Notes: a model not told the origin generated them from the letters alone. A stretch of 64,000 bases of DNA from a virus (IMGVR_UViG_3300042885_001472); one strand, 5' to 3'. Shown: positions 1,704-18,242, numbered from the stretch's first letter. Program-made: numbers and translations.

Positions 1704-1710
1704 ATAATTT

Positions 1711-1911: not shown

Positions 1912-1934
1912 AATATTACAAAAAAATAAATAAA

Positions 1935-2661: not shown

Positions 2662-2891
2662 TAAAATGAAAAAACTTACTAAAATACTTCAAAGTTTAAA
2701 TCGCTTTGCAATCGGTTTGATTTGTAACAATGTCTACCGAAACGCTAATAACAAAGATAACTGCTTAATGGACTTTTGCAAAGAAAAATAATAAATGTCT
2801 ACCGTTTTTGCAAAAGCTTATACGTCTGCCAAACTGTTGCCAAAGCGTGTGTTATGTGACGTTTTTTTATTAATAAACTAAAATTAAAATT

Positions 2892-3089
2892 ATGGAAATA
2901 GGAAAATTAAAAGTAGTATTCATTCTGTCTAATGGTCAAACTTTGACAATTAAATGTAAAAAGTTTAGTATGACAAAACTTAGCGGAACAAAAGGTGAAA
3001 GGGAAATTTCGGTTGAAGGAGCTGATAGAATATGGTCTGTTGACTTAGATGAGGTAGTGGGAATAACTGCTAGATGGTGTCTACTTTAA
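2892..3089 (+). CDS. hypothetical cassette protein
   Basis: Sole ORF of unit 2851-3102. Confidence 0.7.
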   Translation: MEIGKLKVVFILSNGQTLTIKCKKFSMTKLSGTKGEREISVEGADRIWSVDLDEVVGITARWCLL

Positions 3090-3256
3090 AATGACACATA
3101 ACGGTTGCAAATATAAAACGTTTATTAAACTAAACTTAAATTGAAAAACAGAATATAAATATAAACACAACAATAAATTTGGAACACTGGAATAAATGTT
3201 TTATATTTGTTGTTATAAGTATGTATTATTTTTTAAACACTAAATTAAATAGAATT

Positions 3257-3463
3257 ATGAAAGACATTAAAGAAATGGAAGTAGAAGAACTTCGCAAAGA
3301 AATGGACGAACTTTGGGGATATTTATATATGACAAGAGAAGTCGGTGCTTATGATAAATTTGAGTGGAACGGATTAGATTATTGGGATGCTGATAGAAGA
3401 CATCACAAAGTATCACAAGAAGTTCTTCTACGGAGTATATTAGAACTCACTGATAAAAAATAA
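3257..3463 (+). CDS. hypothetical cassette protein
   Basis: ATG 3257 (MKDIKE), inside unit 3212-3476. Confidence 0.7.
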   Translation: MKDIKEMEVEELRKEMDELWGYLYMTREVGAYDKFEWNGLDYWDADRRHHKVSQEVLLRSILELTDKK

Positions 3464-3537
3464 TATTACCTATAACGATTTGCGTATATACGCAGTGCTA
3501 ACGAAAATTTAATTTGAAATACAAAATTTAATAATAT

Positions 3538-3729
3538 ATGAAAACTTTAATTGGAAAAATGAAAGCATTGCGTATATACGCTGTTATAAGCAGTGCTTTT
3601 AAACACGATTGTTGGATGAACAAGAAAATGGTATCAGCTTCTTATTTCAAAGATGGTGATAGCAGTGTAATATTTTCAACTGGTAAAAAATATTGTTGTG
3701 AAAAATGTGGGAATCAGTGGTCTGAATAG
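3538..3729 (+). CDS. small Cys-containing cassette protein; starts inside a hairpin loop
   Basis: HDC...CCEKCG. ATG lies in the loop of hairpin 3473-3586. Confidence 0.7.
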   Translation: MKTLIGKMKALRIYAVISSAFKHDCWMNKKMVSASYFKDGDSSVIFSTGKKYCCEKCGNQWSE

Positions 3730-3833
3730 CATTGCTTATAACGTTTTGCAGCTAATAAATCGGCTTGCTGTTTATTAGGTGCGGTTATAGGTATGTGTTT
3801 TTTGCGTAGGAATTAACAACTAAAATTATAAAT

Positions 3834-4001
3834 ATGAAAATTAAAATTAAAACCGAAAAAGTAGAATTTGAATTTGATGATGAGAAAATTTTTCAAATGG
3901 GAAATTATTTTGAAAAGGAAAATAAAGCTGTTTTAGAATTTCTAAAGGAGTGTATTCAAAAGGTAAGTGAGGAATCGATTAAAATTAATAAACGTGAGTA
4001 G
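3834..4001 (+). CDS. hypothetical cassette protein (55 aa, not in the ORF track)
   Basis: MKIKIKTEKVEFEF...KRE*, sole ORF of unit 3784-4029. Confidence 0.65.
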   Translation: MKIKIKTEKVEFEFDDEKIFQMGNYFEKENKAVLEFLKECIQKVSEESIKINKRE

Positions 4002-4086
4002 TGCGGTGGGTAAAAACATTACCTATAACGGTTTGCAGCTTTGAGCCGTTTAAACGAATATTAATTTAAAACAATAATTAACGAAT

Positions 4087-4314
4087 ATGAAAAATGAAAC
4101 AATAAAAAATGGCTTAAAGGTGCTGTTAGTAGCTGTTATTTTTTGCGGTTGTGATACTACTGTAAGGAAAAATTTAACAGGTGAAAAATATTTTGGAAGT
4201 GATATAGAAGTGCTTGTAGTCGATAGTTGTGAGTATCTGATTTTTGCTTCTGGTACGAGAAGTGTAACGCATAAGGGGAACTGTAAATATTGTGCAGAAC
4301 GTAGCAAAAAATAA
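4087..4314 (+). CDS. putative lipoprotein, cassette family A copy 1
   Basis: Lys-rich N-terminus, LLVAVIFCGC lipobox-like motif, HKGNCKYC; paralog of 13897-14160. Confidence 0.7.
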   Translation: MKNETIKNGLKVLLVAVIFCGCDTTVRKNLTGEKYFGSDIEVLVVDSCEYLIFASGTRSVTHKGNCKYCAERSKK

Positions 4315-4430
4315 TTGCTACTAACGGTTGAGGCTATGAGTAGTTGCCTTGTAAATACTGCTCAATTAACCACAAACGCTGATAGGCAATTGCTTATAGC
4401 CTTTGTTATAGGTTGTAAAATTTATGGATT

Positions 4431-4673
4431 ATGAAAGTAACAGATTTTATTGGAGTGAAAGCTAAATACGATGAAGATGGACAATTTATTTGGGGAATTG
4501 AAAAGGATGGTGGACATCAAAAACTTGCTGATTTAAGAGGTTGGGGAGCAATTCAAAACTTATTCATCAATAAGGATAAAACTATTGATTTAGATGCAGC
4601 AGCAAGTTTTCAAGATGAATTTGGCAGATGGATTGTCGAGGCTATAAACGAGAAATTGGAATGGGAACGGTAG
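4431..4673 (+). CDS. hypothetical cassette protein
   Basis: Sole ORF of unit 4405-4693. Confidence 0.75.
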   Translation: MKVTDFIGVKAKYDEDGQFIWGIEKDGGHQKLADLRGWGAIQNLFINKDKTIDLDAAASFQDEFGRWIVEAINEKLEWER

Positions 4674-4814
4674 TAAATTTTATTACCTATAACGGTTGGC
4701 GATTGGTGTCTGTTATTTTGCCTTGCAGACATTTCAATTTTACGATAAACTTAATAGGCAAAATTATAGCACCAATTGCTTGTTAGCAGTATGTGTTTTT
4801 AAACTTTTTTAGCG

Positions 4815-5009
4815 ATGGCAGGATTAAATTATGGAAACTCTTTTACAAAAAAAAGAGGTATGTATAAAAATAAAAAGGTTGGAGTTAGTTACGCTGAGTT
4901 GGCGGATAAATGGATTGTAAGAATATTAAAAAATGGAACAGTAACAACAATTGCACAATTTAAAACAAAGGAGGAAACGGATGAATATTACGGTGCGTTG
5001 GCAGTTTAA
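4815..5009 (+). CDS. possible AP2-like DNA-binding cassette protein
   Basis: GVSY...KWIVRI...F.T.EE pattern resembles an AP2 domain; unit 4782-5025. Confidence 0.45.
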   Translation: MAGLNYGNSFTKKRGMYKNKKVGVSYAELADKWIVRILKNGTVTTIAQFKTKEETDEYYGALAV

Positions 5010-5076
5010 AAACATTACTGCTAACGTTTTGCAGCTAAACTTAGTTTATTAACCGAATTTAAAACACAATGTAATT

Positions 5077-5325
5077 ATGGAATACAAATCAGAAGATTTT
5101 ATATCATTTATAGAGAATAACAGACGAGATAAGGTAAGCCCTAACGGACTTGAATTAATTGCTAAACGTTTTAGGGAACTGGAATGCGAGGTTAATAAAT
5201 TGAGTTTAGCTGCTGTTAGCGGTTCGTTGAGTAGTAAATGTTTTACGTTAGCGAATGAATTGGCAATAGCTGGTTATGGAAACGAAGCCGTTATGTTACA
5301 CTCAATTAGTAATTCAATACAATGA
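5077..5325 (+). CDS. hypothetical protein; N-terminal ~45 codons lie in a hairpin loop and arm
   Basis: Reads through the right arm of hairpin 5022-5218 (KLSLAAVSGSL). Confidence 0.7.
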   Translation: MEYKSEDFISFIENNRRDKVSPNGLELIAKRFRELECEVNKLSLAAVSGSLSSKCFTLANELAIAGYGNEAVMLHSISNSIQ

Positions 5326-5422
5326 CCGCTAACGTTATCGAGCCTTGCACAGCTAAGGTGTCGCCCGGGTTGGGTTATAGGTAGGTTGTAACGAATGTTT
5401 AATTAATACACAATTTAAAAAT

Positions 5423-5683
5423 ATGGAAAATACAGATTTAATAGGAGAAGATTTTTATCAAATAGAAAAACAAAAAGGTAATATTTTAGATGTAAATAGT
5501 GCTATGGCTTTTAAAATAGCTTGGGATTATGCAATTGGTTATCATAAAAATAAGGTTAAAATAATAGAATTAGAGCTATTAAAATACAAAGAATTAGAAA
5601 AAAAAGTTCGTGAAATTTCTGATAATATTAATACTAAGCAAAGTATATCTTATTGCGTTATGGAACATTTTAAAATTATATAA
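5423..5683 (+). CDS. hypothetical cassette protein
   Basis: Unit 5374-5722. Confidence 0.7.
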   Translation: MENTDLIGEDFYQIEKQKGNILDVNSAMAFKIAWDYAIGYHKNKVKIIELELLKYKELEKKVREISDNINTKQSISYCVMEHFKII

Positions 5684-5834
5684 TCAAAAATGTTTCTAAA
5701 TGATACACAACTTACCTATAACGTTTTCGAGCTAAGCCCTCGTTTTAATGGGGCTTAGGTTGTGTTACCTGCTGGCGGCAGAGAAATGTTGCTATAAGAC
5801 TTTAATATAAAAAATAACTTAAAATAAATATAAA

Positions 5835-6305
5835 ATGGAAAGAAGCGATTTTAGAATCATAGAAAGACTGAACTCATTTGGTAAATCTGAATTTATTATC
5901 CAACATAAAAAACATAAAATGGTTGGAGGTTTCTTCGGACTATTTGGTGGTACTATGCAAGATGTATGGGAAGACTTCTACCTAGAAGTATATGAATGCT
6001 ATGTAAACGACCAACACAGATTTCATAAATATCTATTTATACAAAATTGGAAAGAAAATACAGAAGAAGAAATTGAGTTCTATATAGAACACTTCAATAG
6101 AAAACCAATTGAGTATAGAGGATATAAATTAATTCCGATTGTTTCATACTTTGGTCAAAAATGCCTAACCTATTATGACCCTAAATCATTTTGTAGAAGA
6201 GGTAATTACAACTATGGTTATAGAATATATAGTAGTGAATATGAATCCAAGAAGTATATAGATGATAAATTAGATAAAGGCAGAATATTAAATATTTATG
6301 AATAA
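5835..6305 (+). CDS. hypothetical cassette protein
   Basis: Unit 5764-6398. Confidence 0.75.
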   Translation: MERSDFRIIERLNSFGKSEFIIQHKKHKMVGGFFGLFGGTMQDVWEDFYLEVYECYVNDQHRFHKYLFIQNWKENTEEEIEFYIEHFNRKPIEYRGYKLIPIVSYFGQKCLTYYDPKSFCRRGNYNYGYRIYSSEYESKKYIDDKLDKGRILNIYE

Positions 6306-6394
6306 TATGAAGATTCCAATAGGTGAAAATGAAATAGTTTAGATTTTTTTAACGGCACATACAAAACTATTTCAAAGTAGCTACCGCTTGCAGG

Positions 6395-6471
6395 TAACTA
6401 TTATATATAAACAAGTATAGTCTAAACCCTTTAATAACAATACTTTGAACCAAAAAATTATAAAGATTTGT
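6395..6471. repeat. conserved array-terminal site, copy 1 (candidate attI-like site)
   Basis: 73/77 identical to 16134-16210 by manual alignment. Confidence 0.85.
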
Positions 6472-6542
6472 AAATAAAAGTTTAATTATCTTTTAAAGAT
6501 GAAAATCACTAAATAAAATTAGGAAAATATAAATTAATATGT

Positions 6543-6550
6543 TATCTTTG
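6543..6550 (+). promoter_or_regulatory. Bacteroidota-type -7 promoter element TAnnTTTG (representative copy)
   Basis: Also at 11863, 27317, 32772, 36176 and 61369, and on the minus strand upstream of minus-strand genes. Confidence 0.65.
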
Positions 6551-6565
6551 TAAAAAATATATGTT

Positions 6566-7024
6566 ATGGAAAGTTTAGATGTTAAAAATTTTTGTTTAGT
6601 TATATTAGGTAAACAAAATGACGTTAAAAAAGAGTTAGAATTTATTTCTGAAGGACCAATAAATTATGTTGAGGGAAAATATTTATTCATCGCAACTTTT
6701 AAATCAACATTGTTCGCGAAGGATATTGAAATCTTTTTAAGTAGTTCCAATATAAATTATATCTTATCTGAAATGGTTTCTTCATTATTTTCGGCTGATC
6801 TTGGTGAGTTTAATTCAGCACTATTTAATTTAAATCAAAATACTAATATTTTTGAGAAAAAAATTGTTGTAGATTATACTGGAACTGAAGAAGCTGTAAT
6901 TATTGATGAAGAAGATGAAAATTTAACTTTAGATGAATTATTGGATTTAGTGTCTGAAATAGGATTGGATAAATTAACAAGTAAACAAAAAGAACTTTTA
7001 AATAAATTTTCACTAAATAAATAA
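6566..7024 (+). CDS. hypothetical protein
   Basis: 152-aa ORF co-oriented with the sigma factor. Confidence 0.75.
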   Translation: MESLDVKNFCLVILGKQNDVKKELEFISEGPINYVEGKYLFIATFKSTLFAKDIEIFLSSSNINYILSEMVSSLFSADLGEFNSALFNLNQNTNIFEKKIVVDYTGTEEAVIIDEEDENLTLDELLDLVSEIGLDKLTSKQKELLNKFSLNK

Positions 7025-7025
7025 T

Positions 7026-7835
7026 ATGGTAAATAAAAAATTCATTAATGGTCAAGAAGATTCAATTTCAAATTACCTTAAGGATGTAAAAAAGTGTGGT
7101 GTTATTAACACTGACACTGAAGTTGAATTAGCTAAAAGAATACAAGAAGGTGATCAAGTTGCCGCTGATGAATTGGCTAAAGCTAATCTTAGATTTGTTA
7201 TATCAATCGCCAAAGAATATCAAAATCAGGGATTACCATTAGCGGATTTAATTTCAGAAGGTAATTACGGATTGATTATAGCGGCTCAACGATTTGACTA
7301 TACAAAAGGGTTTAAATTTATTTCTTACGCTGTATGGTGGATAAAACAATCTATTATGCAGTCACTAAACGAACATTCCAGAACTGTTCGGTTACCAACT
7401 AATGTTATCAATAAACTTTCTAAAATTAAGAAAGAGATAGATGCGTTTGAGCAAAAGTTTGAAAGAAAACCAGTATTAGGTGATGAAATTGAAATGGTAT
7501 TCCACCCAACAGTGATATCGTTAAGTACAACAATAAATGATGATGGTGATGAGTTAATTGAAGTTATTGAAGATCCTAACATTAATAGTCCGGACAATGA
7601 TCCATATAATGAGTACGACATTAAAGAACGTATGAATAAAATTCTATCAATTCTTTCTGAAAGGGAGAAAAATGTGATTGAGTTATATTATGGTATAAAT
7701 GGATCACCTTTAACATTGGAAGAAATTGGTGAGGAATATGATTTAACTAAAGAAAGAATTCGTCAAATTAAAGAAAAATGTATCAGAAAACTTAGAAATA
7801 ATGCTGATGTCTTACAACAACAATTATTTGGATAA
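7026..7835 (+). CDS. RNA polymerase sigma-70 family factor (RpoD/RpoS-like)
   Basis: Region 2 ANLRFVISIAKEY, DLISEGN, FISYAVWWIKQ; region 4 HTH TLEEIG..LTKERIRQI. Confidence 0.95.
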   Translation: MVNKKFINGQEDSISNYLKDVKKCGVINTDTEVELAKRIQEGDQVAADELAKANLRFVISIAKEYQNQGLPLADLISEGNYGLIIAAQRFDYTKGFKFISYAVWWIKQSIMQSLNEHSRTVRLPTNVINKLSKIKKEIDAFEQKFERKPVLGDEIEMVFHPTVISLSTTINDDGDELIEVIEDPNINSPDNDPYNEYDIKERMNKILSILSEREKNVIELYYGINGSPLTLEEIGEEYDLTKERIRQIKEKCIRKLRNNADVLQQQLFG

Positions 7836-7980
7836 ATATGAATAAATTTAATGAGTGGTGGAACGAAGTTTTATTCGTTATTAATATTAGTATCTTTGAA
7901 ATATCTGTTGATAATGGAATGATTTGTTCATTGATATTGATAATTTTTGGATTAATGAGTTTATAAATAAAACAAATAAT

Positions 7981-8160
7981 ATGAAAAAAGACATTGAAAT
8001 TAGTGTAACTGAAACAAAATCAGTTGAACATGTTAGTTATGAAGAGTTGTATAACTCATTAAGAGATAGAATTAGATTAATTCAACAACTTAATGATAAA
8101 TACGAAAATGATGAAGATTTTGGTAGAAATTTAAGAAAATTATTGAATTTAGGTGGGTAA
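7981..8160 (+). CDS. hypothetical protein
   Basis: ATG 7981 (MKKDIE) preferred over the track start. Confidence 0.6.
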   Translation: MKKDIEISVTETKSVEHVSYEELYNSLRDRIRLIQQLNDKYENDEDFGRNLRKLLNLGG

Positions 8161-8247
8161 AAATATTGATACTAACGGTATCGGACTTGGCGATGTTGCC
8201 GAAAACAAATGTTAATTAGAATTACTAAACTTTAAATTATAGATAAA

Positions 8248-8544
8248 ATGTCAAACGAAGAAATGAACGGCAATATTGTCAAACCCGTGTTACCTGTTGT
8301 ACTTATTTGCGATTGCAGTAGCCGTGAACACCAAATTATCATTGAACACAACAATGAAGATAACTTAACCTACTGCCATATTCATTTGGTAAAACACGGC
8401 TTTTGGCGAAGATTGAAAGTTGGTTTAAAATACATATTTGGTTATAAATGTAGATACGGTCAATGGGATGAATTTATATTAAAACCCGAACACGCTAACC
8501 AGCTTCGTGAATTGTCGAATTTTCTTTCACAGCATAGCAGGTAA
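8248..8544 (+). CDS. hypothetical cassette protein; starts in a hairpin loop, stop overlaps TAAC
   Basis: CDC...H...H motif; TAA 8542-8544 is part of the TAAC core. Confidence 0.75.
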   Translation: MSNEEMNGNIVKPVLPVVLICDCSSREHQIIIEHNNEDNLTYCHIHLVKHGFWRRLKVGLKYIFGYKCRYGQWDEFILKPEHANQLRELSNFLSQHSR

Positions 8545-8665
8545 CGGTTGAGTAGTAAAAAATTCTAAAACTAAAAATTATGTATACAAAAGATTTATAT
8601 GGATTTAATCCAGTTACAATTGGCCAACACAGGTTGGTTATATTTATTTATTTATAACTAATAAC

Positions 8666-8965
8666 ATGAAAACTAAACAAGAAATAGAAAAGTTAGCTGA
8701 GCAATATTTACAAAAAAATAAACATAATTTTGATACTTGGAAAGAGATAGAACATGTTAAAATTAGTTATATAGATGCTTACACTCAATGCCAAGAAGAT
8801 GTAGATTGGGAATTATTAGTGAAGTTGATTAAAAGGTATACAGAAGAAGATTTACTTCACGCTTTTAGAGAAGGAGTTTTATTACCTAACTCACAAATTG
8901 GTATAATGGAAGATATATTTAAACAAGTAGTTCAATCACTAAACAAACAAGACAATGAAAACTAA
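8666..8965 (+). CDS. MKTKEEIEQLAE-family paralog 1
   Basis: Shared modules MKTK.EIE.LAE, YTQCQED and SLNKQD. Confidence 0.75.
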   Translation: MKTKQEIEKLAEQYLQKNKHNFDTWKEIEHVKISYIDAYTQCQEDVDWELLVKLIKRYTEEDLLHAFREGVLLPNSQIGIMEDIFKQVVQSLNKQDNEN

Positions 8966-9221
8966 AGAAGAAATAGAACAGTTAGCTGAAGAATTTGGGG
9001 ATAAATATGCTGATAACGGAAATCATAAATATGGTTTTATCAAAGGCTACACTCAATGCCAAGAAGATATGGCTGATAAGAAATCCACAGAGGAAGATAT
9101 TAGAAAGGCTATTGAAGTTGGTGTAAATGCAGAAGCCGGTGATTATCCAAAAGGTTTTACACACAAACTTGGAATTAGCTTAGAAGATTATTTTATTAAC
9201 TCACTAAACAAAAAAGACTAA
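8955..9221 (+). CDS. MKTKEEIEQLAE-family paralog 2
   Basis: Same shared modules. Confidence 0.75.
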   Translation: MKTKEEIEQLAEEFGDKYADNGNHKYGFIKGYTQCQEDMADKKSTEEDIRKAIEVGVNAEAGDYPKGFTHKLGISLEDYFINSLNKKD

Positions 9222-9222
9222 T

Positions 9223-9510
9223 ATGAAAAGCAAAGAAGAAATAGAACAGTTAGCTGAAAATCAATATCCAATTGAAGTAGGAGGTTCGATGTGGATGCCT
9301 AATACTAATGATATTAAAAAGGCTAATGAACAAGAAGGTTACATAAAAGGTTACATTCAATGCCAACAAGATATGGCTGATAAGAAATATACAAAGGCAC
9401 AAATTATATGGGTAATACAAGAAGCATACGGACACGGTAGAGATAGTGAAGACACTATTGAAGAAAGTATTGATTATATTTTTAACTCACTAAACAAACA
9501 AGACTTATGA
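9223..9510 (+). CDS. MKTKEEIEQLAE-family paralog 3
   Basis: Same shared modules. Confidence 0.75.
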   Translation: MKSKEEIEQLAENQYPIEVGGSMWMPNTNDIKKANEQEGYIKGYIQCQQDMADKKYTKAQIIWVIQEAYGHGRDSEDTIEESIDYIFNSLNKQDL

Positions 9511-9612
9511 TACAAAAGATTTATCTAAATGTAATTAGTTTTATATTTTTATTAATTGCAAAATTGATTATTAAATGTTTAGATTTTATCAACTCATTAA
9601 ACAAACAAAACA

Positions 9613-10497
9613 ATGACCAGTAAAGAAGTAATGGATGCAGCATTTAATTTAGCTAATAATAAACAAAAGACAATGAAAAACATACACATATTGCCAACGG
9701 ATAAACCAAGTATATTACATTTATATACTGATGAAAATGGCACAAGACTTGAAACTTTTGAAGTAGAATATTCACACACAAGAGATACTCAACACATCTA
9801 CATCACTTCTGATGAAGAAATTAAAGATGGAGATTGGTATTTAGACACCTTTAATAATCAAAGAATTAAAGCTAATGAATTTTCAGACCATAAACATTAC
9901 GGAAATGCTTGTAAAAAAATCATCCTAACAACAGACCAAGACTTAATTACAGATGGTGTTCAAGCTATTGATGATAAGTTTTTAGAATGGTTTGTAAATA
10001 ACAGTAGTTGTGAAAGTGTTGAGGTTGTAAAAGACGGTTTAAAAGTTAAAGAGGGAGGTATTCAAGAACTAATGGAAGATGAGTATTATCAAAAATTCCC
10101 AGAAGAGCTTCCAAACTGCGTTTTTATTGATAAATATGAAATCATCATTCCACAAGAAGAACCTAAACAAGAAACACTTGAAGAAGTTCAATTAGCTATT
10201 TTATTTCATAATACTTATGAGAATTTAGCACCAAATTTTGGTTATGAAACAAGAGCAGATACAAAATCATTTGAAACTACTACTCCAAATGGAATGTTAA
10301 TGATTGCTGTTTGTAAAGAAATAATTAAATGGCAACAAGAAAGAAGTTATAGTGAGGAAGAAGTAAAAGAAATAATTAAACTTTCTTGTGAAAAAGGTAT
10401 GCTGATTCAAAGAACTATAAATGATAAAGTTAAAATTCCATATACAAGAATAAAAGACTTTACGATTAAAATGTTGGAACAATTTAAAAAGAAATAG
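9613..10497 (+). CDS. hypothetical mosaic phage protein
   Basis: 294-aa ORF. Confidence 0.75.
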   Translation: MTSKEVMDAAFNLANNKQKTMKNIHILPTDKPSILHLYTDENGTRLETFEVEYSHTRDTQHIYITSDEEIKDGDWYLDTFNNQRIKANEFSDHKHYGNACKKIILTTDQDLITDGVQAIDDKFLEWFVNNSSCESVEVVKDGLKVKEGGIQELMEDEYYQKFPEELPNCVFIDKYEIIIPQEEPKQETLEEVQLAILFHNTYENLAPNFGYETRADTKSFETTTPNGMLMIAVCKEIIKWQQERSYSEEEVKEIIKLSCEKGMLIQRTINDKVKIPYTRIKDFTIKMLEQFKKK

Positions 10498-10498
10498 T

Positions 10499-10825
10499 AT
10501 GAAAACTAAAGAAGAAATAGAACAGTTAGCTGAAAGCCAATATGGAACTGAAATAGGCAGTATAAGAGGGAGTAATCCTTATGACTTAGAAGGAAATAGA
10601 AAAAATGGCTTAAAGGTGCTGTTAGTGGATGATAAAATTAAGTATGATGATTTAAAAGACGGAGATATTTATGAGCAGGAACAAAGCAAAGGCGAATGGG
10701 TAAAAGGAAAAATTTGCCACCATTGGAGAGGTAGTTTAATGATAGAATTAATTGAAGGAAGATTGAATGGGAAGCAATGGTATTTGTTTCCTGATTTAAA
10801 GAGATTAAGGCGTGTGGCAGCTTAA
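10499..10825 (+). CDS. chimeric protein: MKTKEEIEQLAE head, hairpin-arm peptide, cassette body
   Basis: KNGLKVLLV is encoded by an orphan right arm at 10601-10624, identical to the arm in 4087-4314. Confidence 0.7.
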   Translation: MKTKEEIEQLAESQYGTEIGSIRGSNPYDLEGNRKNGLKVLLVDDKIKYDDLKDGDIYEQEQSKGEWVKGKICHHWRGSLMIELIEGRLNGKQWYLFPDLKRLRRVAA

Positions 10826-11088
10826 TTTTATTTGCCACTAACGGTTGAGTGTATGAGAAGGTTTGCTTTGTTAAACTTTCAAATTACCACCGACCTTTGT
10901 AGCTAACTTTCTTATACACCTTGTTATAACCAGTACGGATAAATTAGCACTGAACTTGATACGAAGAACGAATAAAAACTTTTTAAAAATGTGCGGTGGA
11001 AAACTTGATTAATTTAAAAATAAGTAGTATATCTGTAATATCATAATAATAATAAACTAATAAACTAATAAACTAAAAAATTAAACAA

Positions 11089-11682
11089 ATGGCAAAATTT
11101 ATTGAAACAATTTATCCAACTATTGAAGATAGAGTAAGTAGATGGGAAACAATGGGAATGTTACATATAGTTAAATCTGATGATTCTAAAAAATTGGTGG
11201 CGATGGCACTTGATGCAACTGCAATATATCTTACAGAATTTAATTTTAAAAATTTTGATAACGATACAAAAACGGTTTTAATACCAGTAATTGTAAGAAT
11301 TTTCAACGAAACAAACAAAGATTTCACATTAGAAACATTAACTAAATCAGTTAGAAGAATAATTGAAGATTTTGTGGAAAAATATGAAGAAGCAAAACCT
11401 AAGTTTAACCCATTAACTTCCGAAAGAGATGATGATGCTGAATTTATTGCGTTATATTGCGAAAACTATTCTTTTGATGAAAACAAAATTAAAATTAAAT
11501 TTAAAATTACATTTTGGAAAGATATTCCAGAAAGAACATTTATAATTGATGATACCAACTTCTTTCCAAAATATTTTATGGGGTTGGATGGTATTTTATA
11601 TGAAAATTATGGAACAGAGGAAAAACCAATGTGGGAAAATGTTTTTGATAGTGACTATGAGATTGAAATTGTTAATCTTTAA
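11089..11682 (+). CDS. hypothetical cassette protein
   Basis: Unit 10923-11753. Confidence 0.75.
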   Translation: MAKFIETIYPTIEDRVSRWETMGMLHIVKSDDSKKLVAMALDATAIYLTEFNFKNFDNDTKTVLIPVIVRIFNETNKDFTLETLTKSVRRIIEDFVEKYEEAKPKFNPLTSERDDDAEFIALYCENYSFDENKIKIKFKITFWKDIPERTFIIDDTNFFPKYFMGLDGILYENYGTEEKPMWENVFDSDYEIEIVNL

Positions 11683-11884
11683 GGTGGGAAATTTTTAAAA
11701 AGTTTTTCTCACAGAACTTAAATATGGAACACGAATGTAGTATTGGTTATAACGGTTGGGTGTATGAGAAGGTTTGCTTAGATGAACTTTCAAATTATAC
11801 ACAACTGTTATAACCAGTACGGTTAATTTAAGATAAAACTTGATTAAATGAATAATAATTAGTATATTTGTAAAAAAATAAATT

Positions 11885-12358
11885 ATGGAAAACATATTAA
11901 AAAGGCTTGAATATAAAATATTTAAGAAATACGAAAAAAAGATTGAAGATGTAAAAGATTATGTATGGGATTATAAAAAAATCAATAATGACATTACTCA
12001 ACTTGAACACAATGAAACATTGAGTCGTTTTGTGTTATATTATATGAAAGAATTTAACTTAGATGTAATAATTACATCTGGAGAAATTTGCACTATATTT
12101 CAAAACTTTAGTAATTTTTATATTATTGGTGAAAACGATGTATATAATTATAAAAGATATAAATCTGACATTAGTAATGATTTTGAACCATTTTACCTTA
12201 TCAAAGAAGAAGATAATAATATTGGGGTTGTAATTAAAACCAATATTAGAATTGAACCGAATAATATTATACTAACAAACACTGAAGGTTCTAATTATAA
12301 AATAATTGATGTTTGGAATTTACCAAGTGTTAAACTAACTGAATGTTTTAAAAAATAA
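11885..12358 (+). CDS. hypothetical cassette protein
   Basis: First gene of two-gene unit 11807-12719. Confidence 0.7.
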   Translation: MENILKRLEYKIFKKYEKKIEDVKDYVWDYKKINNDITQLEHNETLSRFVLYYMKEFNLDVIITSGEICTIFQNFSNFYIIGENDVYNYKRYKSDISNDFEPFYLIKEEDNNIGVVIKTNIRIEPNNIILTNTEGSNYKIIDVWNLPSVKLTECFKK

Positions 12359-12362
12359 AGAT

Positions 12363-12701
12363 ATGGAAAAAGAAAATTTAAAAACTGGGGTGTACCTCAT
12401 AAAAGCGGATAGTAAAGATTATTCCTTAACAAAAGAGAAAGAAGAGAAAATAAATTCATTAGAAATTAATGAAGAACATAAAGATTTTTTCAAAAATCTT
12501 TTTAGAGAAGAACCAACACCAAAAGGTTATGATTTATTAGTTGAATTGGTTGGTCAAAATCCTTTTTTAAAAATCAAAAGTGTTAAAAATAATGATACTG
12601 GTGAAAATATTACTGAACAATTTACTGATAAAAATATTGATGATGTTAATTCTTTATGGTTATTTACTAAACATTTAGAATGGGTTCTTCAGAACATATA
12701 A
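12363..12701 (+). CDS. hypothetical cassette protein
   Basis: Second gene of unit 11807-12719. Confidence 0.7.
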   Translation: MEKENLKTGVYLIKADSKDYSLTKEKEEKINSLEINEEHKDFFKNLFREEPTPKGYDLLVELVGQNPFLKIKSVKNNDTGENITEQFTDKNIDDVNSLWLFTKHLEWVLQNI

Positions 12702-12846
12702 CGTAGTATTGGTTATAACGTTTTGCAGCTTTAAGAAGTGGCTGCCTAACGGAAAGTTCAAAGTTCGCACAATGTTTATGGCAGCTTTTGCCAAACCGCT
12801 GTTATGTGCTGGGCGGATTATCAGTACTAATTTTAATTTAAAAACG

Positions 12847-13059
12847 ATGTACAAAGCATTTCAAAACAAAAAGTATTATTTGGCGTTTAACCGATTTCCT
12901 AAAACTGCCAAAAAAGTAGGGGGTGTGCATAAAGCATATTCAACAGGATTTAGAAAATGGAATTCTGATGATATGATTACCTACGCAATAGTTGTCGGCA
13001 CATTCAGGATTATGTTTGGAATTAAAACGCCAAATTATACTTGTGATGAAGGATGTTAG
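12847..13059 (+). CDS. hypothetical cassette protein
   Basis: ATG 12847 (MYKAFQ) in unit 12801-13072; the track start at 12709 is probably an over-extension. Confidence 0.6.
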   Translation: MYKAFQNKKYYLAFNRFPKTAKKVGGVHKAYSTGFRKWNSDDMITYAIVVGTFRIMFGIKTPNYTCDEGC

Positions 13060-13129
13060 CCTTGCACATAACGCTTTGCAGCTTTGAGCCGTTTACCAAA
13101 TATTAATAACAAAAAAATAAATAACGAAT

Positions 13130-13309
13130 ATGCCAAAAACAATACATGCAAAAAGAGAAGATTTAATTTGCGGAAAAATAGACTTAGCACAAGATATGGC
13201 TATTAAATTAAAAAGTATCGAATTACTTGAATTATTAGATAGTATCAGATATGATGCTGTAAGAATGGAACAAAAACTTATTAGCAGAAAACAGGAATCA
13301 AAAATATAA
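13130..13309 (+). CDS. hypothetical protein (59 aa, not in the ORF track)
   Basis: MPKTIHAKRE...ESKI*. Same ACGAATATG start context as 4087 and 14703. Confidence 0.6.
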   Translation: MPKTIHAKREDLICGKIDLAQDMAIKLKSIELLELLDSIRYDAVRMEQKLISRKQESKI

Positions 13310-13490
13310 ATAACAGAACCACCGCTTGCAGGTAACGGTTTGCAGATTGCCGAAGGTGGCGAAATCGAAGCACTAAACTTGATATAAAAACGAATGTTAA
13401 ACCGAAGCACAACAGTTGATATTAGCACTAAACCGCCACTTTTGGCAATGTGCTGTTATAAGCCGTTTTTCTTCACAAATCAAAAAATAA

Positions 13491-13830
13491 ATGGATTTAC
13501 GAATTGAATACATTTTCAGAGAAGAAATGAAAAGAGATACATCTTTTCAAGAAAAAAAAAACTGGGTTAAGTTTGCTTTTCGGAACAAACAAATACTCTA
13601 AACAAGAAATGAGAGAAACTTGGGATAGAGGTATTAAACTTGGAATAGAAATAGGATTGCGAAAAGCAAGTTTAGAAGGACAAAGGATTGAACTTAATCA
13701 CAATACACCCGAAGGAAAGCATAAGGAATTTCTTGAAAAGTTTTATCAATTGGCTGATGAATATAAATGTGCTGTCCAATTTCATCTCGAATTTGGAATG
13801 GTAGTAGTTGCTCGTCAAAATGGCTTATAA
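13491..13830 (+). pseudogene. cassette gene frameshifted at an A10 tract
   Basis: MDLRIEY... joins ORF 13573-13830 if the A10 tract (13552-13561) were A9. Confidence 0.55.
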
Positions 13831-13896
13831 CGGTTTGCAGATAAGCGAAGGCAAAGATTTAGAAACGAAAATTTTAACTTAAAAACAAATATAATT

Positions 13897-14160
13897 ATGA
13901 AAACGAGAACATCATTAAACCACAGAACCTTTGCTTTTGCTTATGTGCTGTTAGTAGCTGTTATTTTTTGCGGCTGTGAGGATATGAATAGAGCCGAAGA
14001 ACGCTCAAAAGTATTTAAAACAGCAGTAGAAGTTAATGGCTACCAAATATCAATAATAGAATTTGATAGTTGTCAATACTTAATATCAGGCGTTGGCTAC
14101 TCACAAATGATGACACATAAAGGGAACTGTAAATTTTGTACAGAACGTAGCAAAAAATAA
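13897..14160 (+). CDS. putative lipoprotein, cassette family A copy 2
   Basis: LLVAVIFCGC, HKGNCKFCTERSKK; ATG in the loop of hairpin 13828-13953. Confidence 0.7.
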   Translation: MKTRTSLNHRTFAFAYVLLVAVIFCGCEDMNRAEERSKVFKTAVEVNGYQISIIEFDSCQYLISGVGYSQMMTHKGNCKFCTERSKK

Positions 14161-14290
14161 TTGCTACTAACGTTTTGCAGCTAATAGACGGGCTGGAAAC
14201 TTATATAATTCCGCCTGTTTATTAGGTGCTGTTATAGGTAGTGCCAAATATAAATACTAAAAGAATATTAATAATTAAAAAATAGAAATA

Positions 14291-14632
14291 ATGAACTTAA
14301 AAGAATTTGTAAAATTTACATTTGAAAAATACGAAAAAAACGGGTATTGTTTTAGACCTAGAATAGTTTGTAATGATGGGTTTTCAATGAGTGTACAAGG
14401 TAGTAACGCATTATATTGTAGACCGAGAATTACACAAGATTGGTATGATAAAATGGAAATAGGTTATCCATCAGCAGAAGAAATTGATATAATAGAATTT
14501 GCTGAGGATATTACAAAACCAACTGATACCGTTTATGGTTATGTGCCATGTGAACTTATTGAAAAAGTTATTTTAAAACACGGTGGTATTAACTCGGTTG
14601 AAACATTTAAAGCTTCTAAGGATATTAAATAG
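14291..14632 (+). CDS. hypothetical cassette protein
   Basis: Unit 14231-14646; CNDGFSMSVQ...GYPS...VYGYVP. Confidence 0.8.
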   Translation: MNLKEFVKFTFEKYEKNGYCFRPRIVCNDGFSMSVQGSNALYCRPRITQDWYDKMEIGYPSAEEIDIIEFAEDITKPTDTVYGYVPCELIEKVILKHGGINSVETFKASKDIK

Positions 14633-14794
14633 GCATTACCTATAACGGTTTGCAGCTTTGAGCCGTTTAAACGAATATTAATTTAAAACTAAAACAACGA
14701 ATATGAATAACAATGAAATAGAAAATGGCGCAAAGGTGATGTTGGTACCAGTAGCCAAATTAAAATTTAAAAACAATAACTTAAAAATACAATT

Positions 14795-15055
14795 ATGAAA
14801 AACAACAAAGAAAAATCGTACCAATACGCATCGATGATACAAGAGGCAATAGCTGAATTGATTTCAGAACACGAATTATTAGCTGATTTTGATGATGAAA
14901 ATAACGCAACTGCATTTTTACACGCATTAGCTAATGTAGTGCCATGTAATATTTATAAGAAATTAACTAATGATAATACTGATATTTTAGGTTTTAATCA
15001 TATTGCTAATAGATTAGTATATCAATTTACAAAGCAGGACGAAGCCGAAGCGTAA
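14795..15055 (+). CDS. hypothetical cassette protein
   Basis: Unit 14741-15079. Confidence 0.7.
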   Translation: MKNNKEKSYQYASMIQEAIAELISEHELLADFDDENNATAFLHALANVVPCNIYKKLTNDNTDILGFNHIANRLVYQFTKQDEAEA

Positions 15056-15199
15056 ACGCCAAGGGCTATTGGTACTAACGGTCGGCAATATGAAACGGTT
15101 GCCCTTGTAAGACGTTTCAAAATATGATGCAGTTTTCTGGCAACTGTTTTATATTGCTTGTTATAGCCAGTTAATTTTAATCAATAAAAACGAAAAAAG

Positions 15200-15400
15200 A
15201 TGGAAGCACCTAAATTAAATGAAGTATGGCATGTTCAATATGGAGAAGCCATTGGTAAAGAATACAATATCCTTGTAAGAATAGATGAGGATAAAAAAGA
15301 GTTAAATCCACCGAATTGGAGAAGAAACAAGTATAAATGTGAGCATAAAAGTAAGGAACTGATGGTAGGTGGAAATATGTTCATTGAACGGTTTTCTTAA
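15200..15400 (+). CDS. hypothetical cassette protein
   Basis: Unit 15160-15411. Confidence 0.7.
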   Translation: MEAPKLNEVWHVQYGEAIGKEYNILVRIDEDKKELNPPNWRRNKYKCEHKSKELMVGGNMFIERFS

Positions 15401-15588
15401 TTGGCTATAACGGTTGGGTGTATGAGAAGGTTTGCTTAGATGAACTTTCAAATTATGCACAAATGCTGATAGCAAACTTTCTTATACACCTTGTTATGTG
15501 TAGGTGTGGTTAATTAAGGTAGAATGTTCAATTGGATAACTGAACAAAAATTTTAAAAGAAAAAGAAAGGTGGATTTTTATTATTTTA

Positions 15589-15596
15589 ATATTTAT
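15589..15596 (+). promoter_or_regulatory. putative phage late-promoter motif ATATTTAT (representative copy)
   Basis: Recurs shortly before start codons at 20085, 21256, 38448, 46525, 50002 and 62244. Confidence 0.55.
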
Positions 15597-15611
15597 ATAT
15601 AAAAGAAAACA

Positions 15612-16061
15612 ATGAAAGATTTGAAACAATTTATTAAAACAACCATACGAGAGTTTTTGAATGAGAGTTCAATTGGGAATATTGAATATAAAATAACATA
15701 TTCACCACCAGAAAATATTCATGTTGTAGCAAAGATTGATGGTGTTATAATTGGAACATTATCTATAATAGATGATAGTCATTTCTTATCAACAGAAGAT
15801 GAACCAACATTTACAATTATGTCAGTATTTGTAGATAAAGAATATAGACAAAAAGGTATTTATATAAATTTAATCAAATATTTTTTACTAAATAATAAAT
15901 ATGGTGTCAAATCGTTATATTCTTCAAAAGAACCAGAATTTGATACAGAAAAAAGAACATCGGTTGCTGATGGTTTTTGGAAAAATGTTTATACAAATCA
16001 AAATAAATATGGTGTAAATGTTGATAAAATAGATAATGATTATGAAATTTCTTTAAAATAA
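15612..16061 (+). CDS. GNAT-family acetyltransferase-like protein with virion-targeting-like N-terminus
   Basis: Acetyl-CoA-binding-like VFVDKEYRQKGI; N-terminus MKDLKQFIKTTIREFLNE. Confidence 0.65.
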   Translation: MKDLKQFIKTTIREFLNESSIGNIEYKITYSPPENIHVVAKIDGVIIGTLSIIDDSHFLSTEDEPTFTIMSVFVDKEYRQKGIYINLIKYFLLNNKYGVKSLYSSKEPEFDTEKRTSVADGFWKNVYTNQNKYGVNVDKIDNDYEISLK

Positions 16062-16133
16062 GTGCGGTGGTATTTTTCTTTTAAAATTTCCAACCGAAAT
16101 ATTGATTAGAAGGATGAACGGAACACTTACACA

Positions 16134-16210
16134 TAACTATTATATATAAACAAGTATGGTCTAAACCCTTTAAAATTAATACTTTGAACCAAAAAATTAT
16201 AAAGATTTGT
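16134..16210. repeat. conserved array-terminal site, copy 2
   Basis: 73/77 identical to 6395-6471. Confidence 0.85.
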
Positions 16211-16334
16211 TAAGAAAAGTTTATATATTATAAAATATAACCCAATAACACATAATTAATTCATTAATAACCTCCACTTTAACAATAAATTGATTATTTT
16301 TTTATTATAATAATATTTATATTAAAAAAAAGAT

Positions 16335-16640
16335 ATGGTTAAAGTAGTAAATTTTTTAAAAGTATGGGGGATATTAATTATTTCCGTACTATTATTCTTT
16401 AAAACTTGTTCAATAACAAGTAAAGTGGAGAAGTTATCAAAAGAAACTAAAGAAGAACTTGTTAAGTTAGATAGTACGGTTAAAAGTGAGACTATTTCTG
16501 AAGAAGAATTCAAAAAAATGATCACTATTGAAGGTTTGAAATCAGAAAAAAGAATGATTCAATCAACAGATAGAAAAATTTTAGATGTTAATAGACAATC
16601 TGAAATTGATAAAGAAATTGAAAACTTAGAGAATAAATAA
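16335..16640 (+). CDS. membrane-anchored coiled-coil protein
   Basis: N-terminal hydrophobic helix. Confidence 0.7.
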   Translation: MVKVVNFLKVWGILIISVLLFFKTCSITSKVEKLSKETKEELVKLDSTVKSETISEEEFKKMITIEGLKSEKRMIQSTDRKILDVNRQSEIDKEIENLENK

Positions 16641-17374
16641 TGGTGGGGGATGTGATTATATATACATTAGAATGTCCTTTAAGTAATAAAATTAAATATA
16701 TAGGTAAAACTATGAATTTAAAGCTTAGATTATATGGTCATATTAACAAATCTAAAAATAAAAAAACATATAAAGATAAATGGGTTAATTCTTTAATAAT
16801 TAAGGGTCATAAACCAATTATGAATGTTTTAGATATTGTAAATGAAAATGAATGGGAATTTTGGGAAAAATTTTATATTTCTTTATTTAAGAGTTGGGGG
16901 TTTTCTTTGACTAACCATACGGAAGGTGGTGATGGAGGATCTTTTAAAAAACATTCCATTGAAACCATAAAAAAAATGTCAAATAAAATACCGTGGAATA
17001 AAGGGATTCCATTTTCTGAAGATGTTAAGAAAAAAATGAGTGAGTCAGGAAAAGTAAAAGTTTTTACAAAAACTCATTTAGAAAATATGTCTAAATCACT
17101 TAAAGGTAAAAAAAGAGGTAGTTTTAGTGAAGAATGGAAACGTAATATCAGTAAAGGTAAGTTAAACACGATAATGTCTGAAGAAACTAAAGAAAAATTA
17201 AGAAATACGTCACCAAAAAGAAAGAAAATTATTTGTACAAGTACAAATATTATTTATAACAGCATATCTGAAGCTAGTAGACTTTTAAAAATACCAGTTA
17301 GTACAATTAATGGTGTGTTAAAAAAAAGAAGAAAGTTAGCTCATGGATTATTATTTAATTACTACAATGATTAA
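16640..17374 (+). CDS. GIY-YIG homing endonuclease with NUMOD3 and NUMOD1-like HTH
   Basis: IYTL..KYIGKT..LRLYGH, EKFYI, repeated SEETKEKL-type motifs, YNSISEASRLL. Confidence 0.85.
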   Translation: MVGDVIIYTLECPLSNKIKYIGKTMNLKLRLYGHINKSKNKKTYKDKWVNSLIIKGHKPIMNVLDIVNENEWEFWEKFYISLFKSWGFSLTNHTEGGDGGSFKKHSIETIKKMSNKIPWNKGIPFSEDVKKKMSESGKVKVFTKTHLENMSKSLKGKKRGSFSEEWKRNISKGKLNTIMSEETKEKLRNTSPKRKKIICTSTNIIYNSISEASRLLKIPVSTINGVLKKRRKLAHGLLFNYYND

Positions 17375-18242
17375 TTTTTTTAAAAAAAATAAGTTTAATA
17401 TGATAAGATTTATGCTTATTATTCCAATAATACTAGTTAGTATTATAAGTATAAGTCATGTCACTATTTGGTATAACCTTTCAAATCCGTTAAGTTGGGC
17501 TTTATATTTATCGGTAGCTATTGAAATTGCCGCTATGGTTGCGGTAATGGCCGCTTCATTGAAAATGAAGGGTGGTGCGTGGTGGATTTTCATAATAGTT
17601 TCATTTATTCAATTTATAGGTAATATTTTCTATTCTTATAATGAAATAAACGTTAATAGTCCAGAATTCAAAAGTTGGGTAGAATTGGTCAGTCCAATAT
17701 TTGATATTGTAGGTTTAGATTCTTCAGACGTACTTAGTCATAAAAGGTGGTTAACTTTATTAGAGGGAGGATTATTACCAATAATATCTTTAACTTGTTT
17801 ACATTTCTTTATCAAATATAGTGGTGTGGATGAATCTAATCCAATACCAGAAGTTATTGAAGAAACTATCGTTAATGAGGATAAAGAGGAATTTTATGTA
17901 GTGGAAAATACTGAAGATGAAGAAGTAAAACCATTCAAAGAAGAAGATCTTATACCCTATGAAGAAACTGGGGATGAAAGTGAAGGGATATACTTTGAAC
18001 CAGACACTTCACCCAAAGAAGAAATTGAAGAAATGGTTGTTGAACCAGAGATTTTAGTGGAAGAACCCAATTTAGAAATTTCTCAAATTGAGGAAGAAAA
18101 AAAAAATAACGATGATTCAATCACAGATGTTGAATCAGGAGGACAACCTAATGAGGGGACCTTTAATAACTCCAAAATCCAAATGGGTTCGTCCAAATCA
18201 GGAGAGGGTATAATCTATAAAAATCGTGGTCTTAGAAACTAA
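17367..18242 (+). CDS. multi-pass membrane protein with acidic tail (possible holin-like)
   Basis: About 4 hydrophobic segments followed by an E-rich tail; adjacent to the amidase. Confidence 0.55.
   Translation: MINFFKKNKFNMIRFMLIIPIILVSIISISHVTIWYNLSNPLSWALYLSVAIEIAAMVAVMAASLKMKGGAWWIFIIVSFIQFIGNIFYSYNEINVNSPEFKSWVELVSPIFDIVGLDSSDVLSHKRWLTLLEGGLLPIISLTCLHFFIKYSGVDESNPIPEVIEETIVNEDKEEFYVVENTEDEEVKPFKEEDLIPYEETGDESEGIYFEPDTSPKEEIEEMVVEPEILVEEPNLEISQIEEEKKNNDDSITDVESGGQPNEGTFNNSKIQMGSSKSGEGIIYKNRGLRN

Follow-up and report, generated by a model that had tools for sequence, protein, structure and literature searches.

Two arrays of small genes in a 64-kb stretch of DNA from a large lake-water phage (IMGVR_UViG_3300042885_001472; the whole stretch is hereafter the window) end in copies of the same sequence, raising the question of whether this sequence is the fixed insertion site at which the arrays are built.

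A repeated, non-folding site at the ends of two arrays

The arrays and the repeated site occupy the following positions:

2177–6398, + strand: array 1, ~10 hairpin-first cassettes between an SbcC-like gene and orf152
8173–16137, + strand: array 2 in the wide sense, comprising a single cassette (8173–8545), a block (8545–10842) and then ~9 cassettes (10839–16137)
6395–6444, + strand: attI-like site, copy 1, with the TAAC core, TATTATATATA and ~35 nt to the recombinase start codon; non-folding
16134–16183, + strand: attI-like site, copy 2, homologous to copy 1; non-folding

Comparison of 6395–6471 with 16134–16210 reproduces the 73/77 match on which the original prediction rested, with four differing positions. 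The 77-bp length given for the repeat is too short: because similarity to related phages continues to ~6496 and ~16250, the real unit measures ~100–117 nt. The repeat finder returns 103 nt at 89% (family D9), and megablast aligns 90 nt at 93.3%, with 6/90 differences. The window contains exactly two occurrences each of the 32-mer ATACTTTGAACC...GATTTGT and of the core TAACTANNATATAT, with 0.00 and 0.10, respectively, expected by chance.

The copies stand, as predicted, in place of the hairpin after the last cassette, each lying directly 3′ of its array's final cassette. Neither folds as single-stranded DNA (z +1.31 and +0.11), while the adjoining cassette hairpins do in the same test (z −5.35, −2.77 and −4.16). 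Left of each TAAC the copies share no sequence, in agreement with the claim that identity begins at TAAC and that the preceding cassettes are unrelated. The sequence to the left is a genuine cassette 3′ end, pairing at 9/12 (copy 1) and 10/12 (copy 2) positions with the hairpin flank of the same cassette ~630 nt upstream (background 4.4/12). The repeat is composed of two parts: the first ~50 nt form the attI-like site with the core TAAC|TATTATATATA, and the remainder comprises the 5′ codons of a recombinase gene. The crossover within the docking site is inferred to fall at TAA|C.

The recombinase gene beside the site

In more than 45 related phage contigs, an intact gene for a 266-aa Xer-like tyrosine recombinase lies directly 3′ of the site. 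The order of array, TAAC plus site, and co-directional 266-aa recombinase recurs in L001/L036, L003, L007 and ~45 further IMG/VR loci, establishing the site-recombinase link in relatives, where a non-hairpin site with a fixed cassette crossover adjoins the integrase 5′ end. Across 35 distinct related sites, the core is conserved: information content is almost nil up to TAAC and climbs there, and the start codon follows TAAC by 49–50 or 58–59 nt. G001 and G002 carry one core match each, adjoining int, and an exact 30-mer of the site is preceded by a TAAC cassette end in 5/5 metagenome contigs. No site copies away from array ends were found in the window, the complete relatives or the metagenome contigs, fulfilling the expectation that the 77-mer in relatives should abut a cassette end, there with the recombinase gene attached. 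A core match at G003:36383 was rejected as a chance match of an AT-rich 12-mer; it lies inside an ORF on the opposite strand.

In the window, the gene beside the site is reduced to 9–10 codons:

6445–6496, + strand: recombinase gene stub, copy 1, TTG plus nine codons, stop at 6475–6477; similarity to intact genes fades at ~6496
16184–16250, + strand: recombinase gene stub, copy 2, TTG plus eight codons, stop at 16211–16213; decayed similarity to ~16250

The stub translation MNQKIIKIC matches the recombinase N-terminus, and copy 2 matches at 14/15 residues in tblastn. The whole 77-mer cannot be taken as the site, its last ~27 nt being the first codons of the truncated recombinase gene and lying outside the site proper. 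Orphan stubs with other truncation points are present in L086 and L088; these independent stubs indicate that loss of the recombinase gene is recurrent. The 24-nt core region is intact in 4/4 stubs. No recombinase gene was found in the 64-kb window; this absence and the early stops in both stubs count against the reading we prefer below.

The phage recombinase is nearest in sequence to XerA/XerC/XerD, with all Xer scores under the family cutoffs (XerA 189 versus 220, XerC 157 versus 335 and XerD 157 versus 330). It reaches 155.5 bits against TIGR02249 (cutoff 265), in two stretches. Its alignment to VchIntIA (2a3v) is interrupted between query 177/208 and chain 180/259, leaving it ~48 residues short, and the enzyme aligns with XerC-like 4a8e without a break. 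The phage recombinase contains no IntI-specific additional domain (I2 helix region), and the conserved site beside its gene contains no two-arm (dif-like) palindrome. The missing IntI-specific segment, held necessary for hairpin recombination, is a further point against the preferred reading.

Cassette boundaries and turnover beside the site

The window contains ~20 hairpins and no integrase. Each cassette is composed of a hairpin, a same-strand ORF and a 3′ end pairing with its own hairpin flank, as in the two units next to the sites:

5719–6398, + strand: site-proximal cassette of array 1, hairpin 5719–5767, ORF 5835–6305, 3′ end pairing with its own hairpin flank
15408–16137, + strand: site-proximal cassette of array 2, hairpin 15408–15496, GNAT-like ORF 15612–16061, 3′ end ...cacaTAAC

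A cassette starts at the left TAAC of its hairpin (5719–5722 and 15408–15411), not at the right arm. Of the newest cassettes, originally placed at 5764–6398 and 15493–16137, the site-proximal position stands but the 5′ boundaries do not, the corrected units spanning ~5722–6397 and ~15411–16136. The block at 8545–10842 within array 2 measures 2.3 kb and encodes five paralogous ORFs.

The hairpins follow the scheme 5′ YTATAA|C, a 3–5 nt bulge, stem, loop, stem, GTTATA 3′, with a base of the RYYYAAC/GTTRRRY type. The unit boundaries lie demonstrably at TAAC; the cleavage chemistry itself is inferred. A search of ~45 arrays found 170 hairpins, and because shuffled arrays give 54, the count is not used as evidence, only the distribution of the bulge: 3–5 nt (GGT, GGTT, GTTT) directly follow TAAC on the presumptively cleaved 5′ arm in 132/170 hairpins, with 0–1 nt on the 3′ arm. 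A bulge on the cleaved arm differs from classical attC and weighs against our interpretation. All cassette ORFs lie on the + strand and read toward the site; none points away from it, the opposite of the bacterial integron layout. The reversed polarity proposed earlier is upheld, applying to the cassette coding strand and the bulge-bearing arm but not to the hairpin-site-recombinase layout, which is classical along the recombined strand.

Comparison between arrays revealed that 68/138 homology blocks begin ≤2 nt from TAAC and that complete TAAC-to-TAAC units are common to distant phages (97.6% over 422 bp and 98.6% over 348 bp). When the 12 nt after each GTTA are set against the 12 nt before the next TAAC, 158/228 are paired, compared with 79/228 against the neighbouring unit's end; we read these self-complementary unit ends as a footprint of circles. 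Many blocks common to arrays are hairpin-plus-leader or leader-plus-N-terminus modules rather than complete units, and ordinary homologous recombination therefore also reshuffles the arrays.

The junctions are established by direct comparison. Window positions 15397–16137 correspond to L043 434–1174 with 3 mismatches in 741 (99.6%); after this shared cassette the window reads cacaTAAC|tattata, entering the site, whereas L043 reads cacaTAAC|ggttgag, entering an ordinary hairpin. L003 and L014 display the same pattern, with homology ending exactly after TAAC. Three phage lineages with site and recombinase 99.76–100% identical carry unrelated proximal cassettes, as anticipated if variation is concentrated next to the site. 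Isolates of the cultured Polaribacter phage Freya differ by 0–4.1 kb of inserted units, which lie at [CT]AAC, 50 nt before the homologous int.

Core genes follow each copy:

6566–7835, + strand: orf152 and a sigma-70-family factor, core genes directly after copy 1
16335–16640, + strand: orf101, core gene directly after copy 2 and directly 3′ of sigma in G002

In the 318-kb relative G002, SbcC-orf152 and sigma-orf101 are each adjacent without arrays between them, and 7836–16334 is missing as a whole between sigma and orf101, which makes both window arrays insertions specific to this lineage, placed between core genes. At 99.8–100% identity to the window, contigs from at least 10 samples show no insertion or excision at the orphan sites, another point against the preferred reading. 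Logan contigs from four lake metagenome runs, compared with 1500–17500, are short, broken at repeats and too fragmented to reveal such events, their joints being mostly repeat or other-organism artefacts.

Interpretation and comparison with known systems

We interpret each copy, at a probability of roughly 80%, as the platform end of an integron-like element carried by the phage, composed of a ~50-nt double-stranded docking site and the first recombinase codons, with the rest of the gene lost. Arrays that end in a docking site and in the first codons of a gene intact in relatives point to integron-like gene capture, with genes pointing toward the site. The site-recombinase linkage, the exact TAAC breakpoints and the variation at the site support the prediction of a fixed attI-like insertion site with the genes inverted relative to it.

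The putative mechanism, modelled on integrons, has the recombinase folding the + strand of the cassette hairpin, cleaving its 5′ arm at TAA|C and carrying out strand exchange with the docking-site TAA|C; IntI treats attI and the bottom strand of attC in this way. On this model, arrays would grow on the upstream side of the site, and the cassette adjoining it would be the most recent. Orphan sites may be served in trans, now or recently, by one intact recombinase, none being present in the 64-kb window. Because the ORFs read toward the site, an attI-side promoter cannot drive them, and read-through or their own leaders are needed. There is no biochemical evidence, which also tells against this interpretation, and continued cassette uptake by the recombinase-less copies has not been demonstrated.

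The copies could alternatively be dead relics, leftovers of duplicated platforms from which the recombinase was deleted, with arrays predating the loss and sites no longer receiving cassettes. Early stops and decayed 3′ parts in both stubs, the 6/90 differences between the copies, the fixation of the arrays in all sampled populations and the recurrent gene loss seen in L086 and L088, with their other truncation points, are all consistent with this view. The core region retained in every stub is not, nor is the action of classical integrases on attI in trans. In addition, a phage with a recombinase of only 68% identity carries a copy of array 2's site-proximal cassette at 99.6% identity, which makes the cassette far younger than the stub divergence, although the direction of transfer is unknown. 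We consider relics unlikely, without being able to set them aside.

Modules might also be shuffled without a site-specific enzyme, by homologous recombination at recurring stem-loops, in the manner of the promoter-stem-loop cassettes of T4-type phages; the repeat would then be just another module prone to recombination. Hairpin bodies, leaders and N-termini do recur with different ORFs (repeat families D2, D5, D10 and D14), but the docking site and hairpins have only TAAC in common, yet their junctions are base-exact; together with the self-complementary unit ends and the recombinase gene always attached to the site, this renders the explanation improbable. If the repeat were instead a promoter or 5′ leader common to the operons that follow it (orf152-sigma, orf101...), and its place after the arrays were incidental, this would fit the location of both copies 90–150 nt upstream of core genes and the expression signals that the stretch must hold for the recombinase itself in relatives. 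However, the repeat contains no sigma-70-type match above shuffles and no Bacteroidetes-type TTTG-N17-21-TAnnTTTG match, a motif found before the window's tmRNA and tRNA genes, and no Rfam family matches the site or the hairpins. We reject this scarcely credible reading for its lack of a promoter consensus in the site, its few copies (only two across the 64 kb and a single one in each complete relative) and the exact TAAC breakpoints that it leaves unexplained. IS200/IS605-type peel-and-paste with a TAAC target, considered for the tetranucleotide and hairpin, was set aside because the gene that invariably accompanies the site encodes an Xer/IntI-type tyrosine recombinase rather than an HUH transposase; no HUH domain emerged from Pfam scans, which covered the larger window ORFs but not the small ones.

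Extending the integron-like reading, we tentatively envisage, at somewhat less than even odds, a virulent jumbo phage with several arrays, each anchored by a recombinase-less docking site, and a single short Xer-like enzyme that loads them all in trans, recombining folded single-stranded hairpins without the IntI insertion. If true, this would constitute an independent or ancestral route to integron-type capture, common to thousands of flavobacterial phages, including cultured Polaribacter phages. We found no paper describing this phage system.

Integrons are seen as devices of bacteria and, more recently, of archaea that rely on an IntI-specific protein segment and on cassettes pointing away from attI. 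The same logic, with a docking site, hairpin-bounded units and turnover beside the site, appears in a large phage family, in a version with a shorter enzyme, genes facing the site and docking sites copied to new genome places. If the enzyme is shown to work, it would explain the swapping of small accessory genes by large phages, including with unrelated siphophages, put to the test the supposed need for the IntI insertion in hairpin recombination and provide a compact recombinase/site pair with which cassettes could be inserted as single strands. A culture system for testing the mechanism exists in the Freya isolates.

Among known systems, Xer/dif and pdif modules (e.g. PMC7399989) act on double-stranded sites of ~28 bp, built from two arms and a short spacer. 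No two-arm site is seen here, and the phage repeats are 48–266-nt hairpins. The promoter-early stem-loop (PeSL) mobile cassettes of T4-type phages, reportedly described by Arbiol et al. in 2010, are alike in setting: there, too, the plastic regions of large phages contain small accessory ORFs with repeated stem-loops between them, and modules are reshuffled between phages. PeSL exchange is thought to be homologous, without a dedicated recombinase or docking site.

Treponema and certain other phyla have "inverted" integrons, with intI placed upstream and transcribed into the array. The phage elements share the co-directionality of recombinase gene and cassette ORFs, but their recombinase lies downstream, and the ORFs read toward the site and gene. 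CALINs and ΔintI arrays likewise lack a recombinase in cis, have an orphan attI at the array end in at least one known case and can be carried by phages (PMC9892861); a CALIN in the Shewanella prophage M16-3 keeps its own attI (Qi et al. 2023, PMC9892861). Those arrays are bacterial integron fragments or were found with bacterial attC models, whereas here the site, hairpins and recombinase constitute a phage-specific family and the orphan site retains the first codons of the lost gene.

Likeness to classical integrons (IntI, attI and attC; class 1 and Vibrio chromosomal; VchIntIA 2a3v) extends to a recombinase transcribed away from an adjoining non-hairpin site, cassettes bounded by imperfect hairpins with an AAC/GTT base, a crossover in ..AA|C on the 5′ arm of one strand, the array-site-recombinase order along the recombined strand, self-pairing cassette ends and turnover that is highest beside the site. 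In classical integrons, attI lies upstream of cassettes that face away from it. The phage ORFs instead lie on the recombined strand, with the hairpin at the unit's 5′ end, often containing the start codon; as these genes are transcribed toward the site, no Pc-type promoter applies. The phage bulge comprises 3–5 nt on the cleaved arm, whereas attC has a two-sided spacer and extrahelical bases on the other arm. The enzyme, at 266 aa, is missing ~48 residues including the IntI-specific insertion, and the carrier is a virulent-looking jumbo phage.

Repeated site and recombinase stubs

The two copies of the 77-mer differ at four positions, and its 32-nt 3' part and its 14-nt core, TAACTANNATATAT, have no matches in the 64 kb besides these copies (expected 0.00 and 0.10), confirming the pair reported in the original prediction.

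2177-6398, plus-strand ORFs: array 1, between the SbcC-like gene and orf152
6395-6471: copy 1, at the end of array 1
8173-16137, plus-strand ORFs: array 2 (wide sense), between the sigma gene and orf101
16134-16210: copy 2, at the end of array 2

Folding potential is lacking in both copies (z +1.31 and +0.11). An array of small plus-strand ORFs lies 5' of each, and the repeated elements between these ORFs are strong hairpins, with z down to -5.35 and the layout 5' YTATAAC, short bulge, stem, loop, stem, GTTATAR 3'. Copies away from arrays, which would have refuted a fixed attI-like site, were not found, both window copies lying at array ends. The core matches once each in the related genomes G001 (85% complete) and G002 (96%), adjoining the recombinase gene (int), and an exact 30-mer follows a TAAC cassette end in 5/5 metagenome contigs. 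An extra core match in a third relative, G003, sits inside an ORF and is due to chance.

An exact 30-mer of the repeat also matched an IMG/VR phage contig in which a hairpin-cassette array is followed by the repeat sequence and then by an ORF of the tyrosine recombinase family (domains Phage_integrase and Phage_int_SAM_4), with its TTG start codon within the repeat. The window sequence ttgaaccaaaaaattataaagatttgt translates to MNQKIIKIC, the N-terminus of this recombinase. The frame stops after 10 codons in copy 1 (6475-6477) and after 9 in copy 2 (16211-16213), likeness to intact genes dies out at ~6496 and ~16250, and no further recombinase-like sequence is present in the window besides these two stubs. 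At full length the recombinase has 266 aa. The 120 database proteins nearest to it share 79% identity or more and span 225-300 aa, with 266-268 aa in nearly every case; they lie on contigs that reach 343 kb and look like jumbo phages. Recombinase relatives are encoded at 52 IMG/VR loci; those with upstream sequence carry TAAC followed by TATTATATATA or a close variant 49-50 or 58-59 nt 5' of the start codon, with no conservation left of TAAC beyond features common to cassette ends. Two other metagenomic contigs bear recombinase-less copies (L086 237-340 and L088 2268-2330), cut ~75 and ~45 nt into the gene; since the cuts differ, truncation recurs and stubs arise repeatedly. These comparisons support and sharpen the attI-like reading: the repeat consists of a docking site and, behind it, a recombinase stub, although activity of the recombinase, and of the orphan sites especially, has not been shown.

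TAAC junctions and variation beside the site

L043, a phage locus whose recombinase is only 68% identical, contains a copy of the last cassette of array 2 (15397-16137), with 3 mismatches in 741 nt. In L043 the cassette is separated from the site by 7.7 kb and an ordinary hairpin comes next (cacaTAAC|ggttgagtg); the window copy runs into the site (cacaTAAC|tattatata). The loci L003 and L014 form a second such pair, with one cassette and different sequence after TAAC. Homology blocks between arrays of different phages start within 2 nt of a TAAC in 68 of 138 cases, and different phages share whole units, TAAC to TAAC, with 97.6% and 98.6% identity. Complementarity between the 12 nt that follow a hairpin's GTTA and the 12 nt that precede the next TAAC amounts to 158/228 positions in the window (9/12 and 10/12 for the two site-abutting units); with the 12 nt in front of their own TAAC it is only 79/228, the background. 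By these breakpoints, block starts and end pairings, a unit extends from TAA|C across its hairpin and ORF up to the following TAA|C, with ends that fit as in a circle.

In one lake metagenome (run X14; window 15474-16229), Logan contigs end at 16136 and start at 16133, so that the assembly graph has a branch point at the TAAC junction, as expected if related phages there carry other partners, without proving it.

Variation had been predicted beside the site, and was found there: across L003, L004/L006/L090 and L005, site and recombinase are 99.76-100% identical over 850 nt, and the three proximal cassettes are unrelated, diverging from TAA|C onwards. Further support comes from the cultured Polaribacter phages Freya_1, 5, 6, 8, 9 and 10 (L091-L097; MT732463-MT732472), with an int 36% identical to the 266-aa recombinase (P0002) and [CT]AAC 50 nt 5' of its ATG. 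Otherwise 99.5-100% identical at the int region, these isolates are set apart by 0-4.1 kb of small-ORF units, with the insertion point precisely at this [CT]AAC; Freya_9 lacks only the proximal 304-bp unit of Freya_10. Every Freya unit ends in TTTTTA..TTRC[CT]AAC, and a hairpin lies 5' of the junction, so these units may be designed differently from those of the window's family. The paper describing these phages took the integrase only as a hint of lysogeny.

Array placement and cassette polarity

The window has a GC content of ~28%, with genes nearly all on one strand. Among its products are a sigma-70-family factor, a GIY-YIG homing endonuclease, an amidase, DnaJ, a tmRNA and tRNAs; the majority of its proteins have no Pfam family, and its sequence is present in lake-water metagenomes of many studies at 99.8-100% identity. 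A promoter consensus of Bacteroidetes type lies just 5' of the tmRNA gene (36199-36613) and a tRNA gene, so the RNA genes of the phage seem to be under host-type promoters.

36152-36613: stretch with TTTG-N17-21-TAnnTTTG
56869-56995: stretch with the same consensus

In the 318-kb relative G002, the orf152 homologue begins 42 nt after the SbcC-like gene, and downstream of the sigma gene come ~100 nt and then homologues of orf101, orf299 and the amidase gene, with no hairpins in these gaps. The corresponding intervals in the window measure 4.8 kb (array 1 and stub) and 8.5 kb (7836-16334, array 2 and stub). By this comparison, both arrays are lineage-specific insertions, each with the site at the downstream edge against a core gene. 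Either a platform end would have been duplicated and then loaded in trans, or whole arrays would have been transposed and the recombinase gene then lost; array placement is compatible with both. As to whether the orphan sites are still in use, the invariance of arrays 1 and 2 in all sampled populations speaks against it, whereas the near-identical proximal cassette of array 2 in a distant phage counts the other way. The interval from orf101 to orf299 in the window houses a GIY-YIG homing endonuclease (16640-17374 vs L084 16051-16755), and G002 too has an ORF in this slot.

In tyrosine recombinases, including those acting on the attC bottom strand, the monomer at the hairpin base cleaves the 5' arm. 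With the unit boundary at the left TAAC, the recombined strand is therefore the plus strand, cleavage itself being inferred. Along it, the order is distal cassettes, proximal cassette, site and recombinase (sense), exactly the bottom-strand order of a classical integron. Unlike in the classical integron, the cassette ORFs lie on the recombined strand itself and run towards the site, so the hairpin is the 5' part of each unit. The hairpins also differ: in 132/170, 3-5 nt bulge out immediately behind TAAC on the arm that is cleaved, with 0-1 nt opposite, a preference absent from shuffled arrays.

3473-3586, 4026-4128 and 5022-5218: hairpin loops holding the start codon or lipoprotein signal peptide of the downstream ORF

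At these places and at 13828-13953, the start codon lies in the loop and the 3' arm encodes part of the N-terminus, including a lipoprotein-type signal peptide (..LLVAVIFCGC). The lipoprotein paralogues 4087-4314 and 13897-14160 have 3' arm and body in common and different hairpin stems. Five adjacent ORFs at 8666-10825 with a conserved N-terminus (MKTKEEIEQLAE...) lie within one 2.3-kb unit without hairpins between them and look like tandem duplications; over 9510-10577, depth in lake metagenomes is raised 10-50-fold, suggestive of a domain or repeat that many genomes share. One small gene, a 98-aa ORF of the cassette at 8173-8545, is 89.6% identical in DNA to Flavobacterium siphophages (38 kb), namely vB_FspS_filifjonk9-1 (L002 2380-2900) and 45 related Muminvirus records, where it also lies between TAAC...GTTA hairpins and similarity ends at TAACG.

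Relation to integrons

Among profiles, XerA gives the recombinase its highest score (189 bits); XerC/XerD reach 157 and the integron-integrase model 155.5, split over two pieces, every score falling below its family cutoff. Its alignment to a XerC-like structure is unbroken, and that to VchIntIA consists of two blocks, skipping 78 integrase residues where the phage protein has 30. Given the sub-cutoff scores and the broken alignment, the recombinase falls outside the usual definition of IntI. Published CALINs include some from phages, among them a Polaribacter phage, and Qi et al. 2023 (PMC9892861) describe one in a Shewanella prophage that has retained its own attI. Our literature search found no paper on this family of recombinases, on its site or on cassettes oriented towards that site. 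With the activity of the recombinase and of the orphan sites still to be shown, the phage system works like an integron, yet fails three of the defining tests of the integron family.
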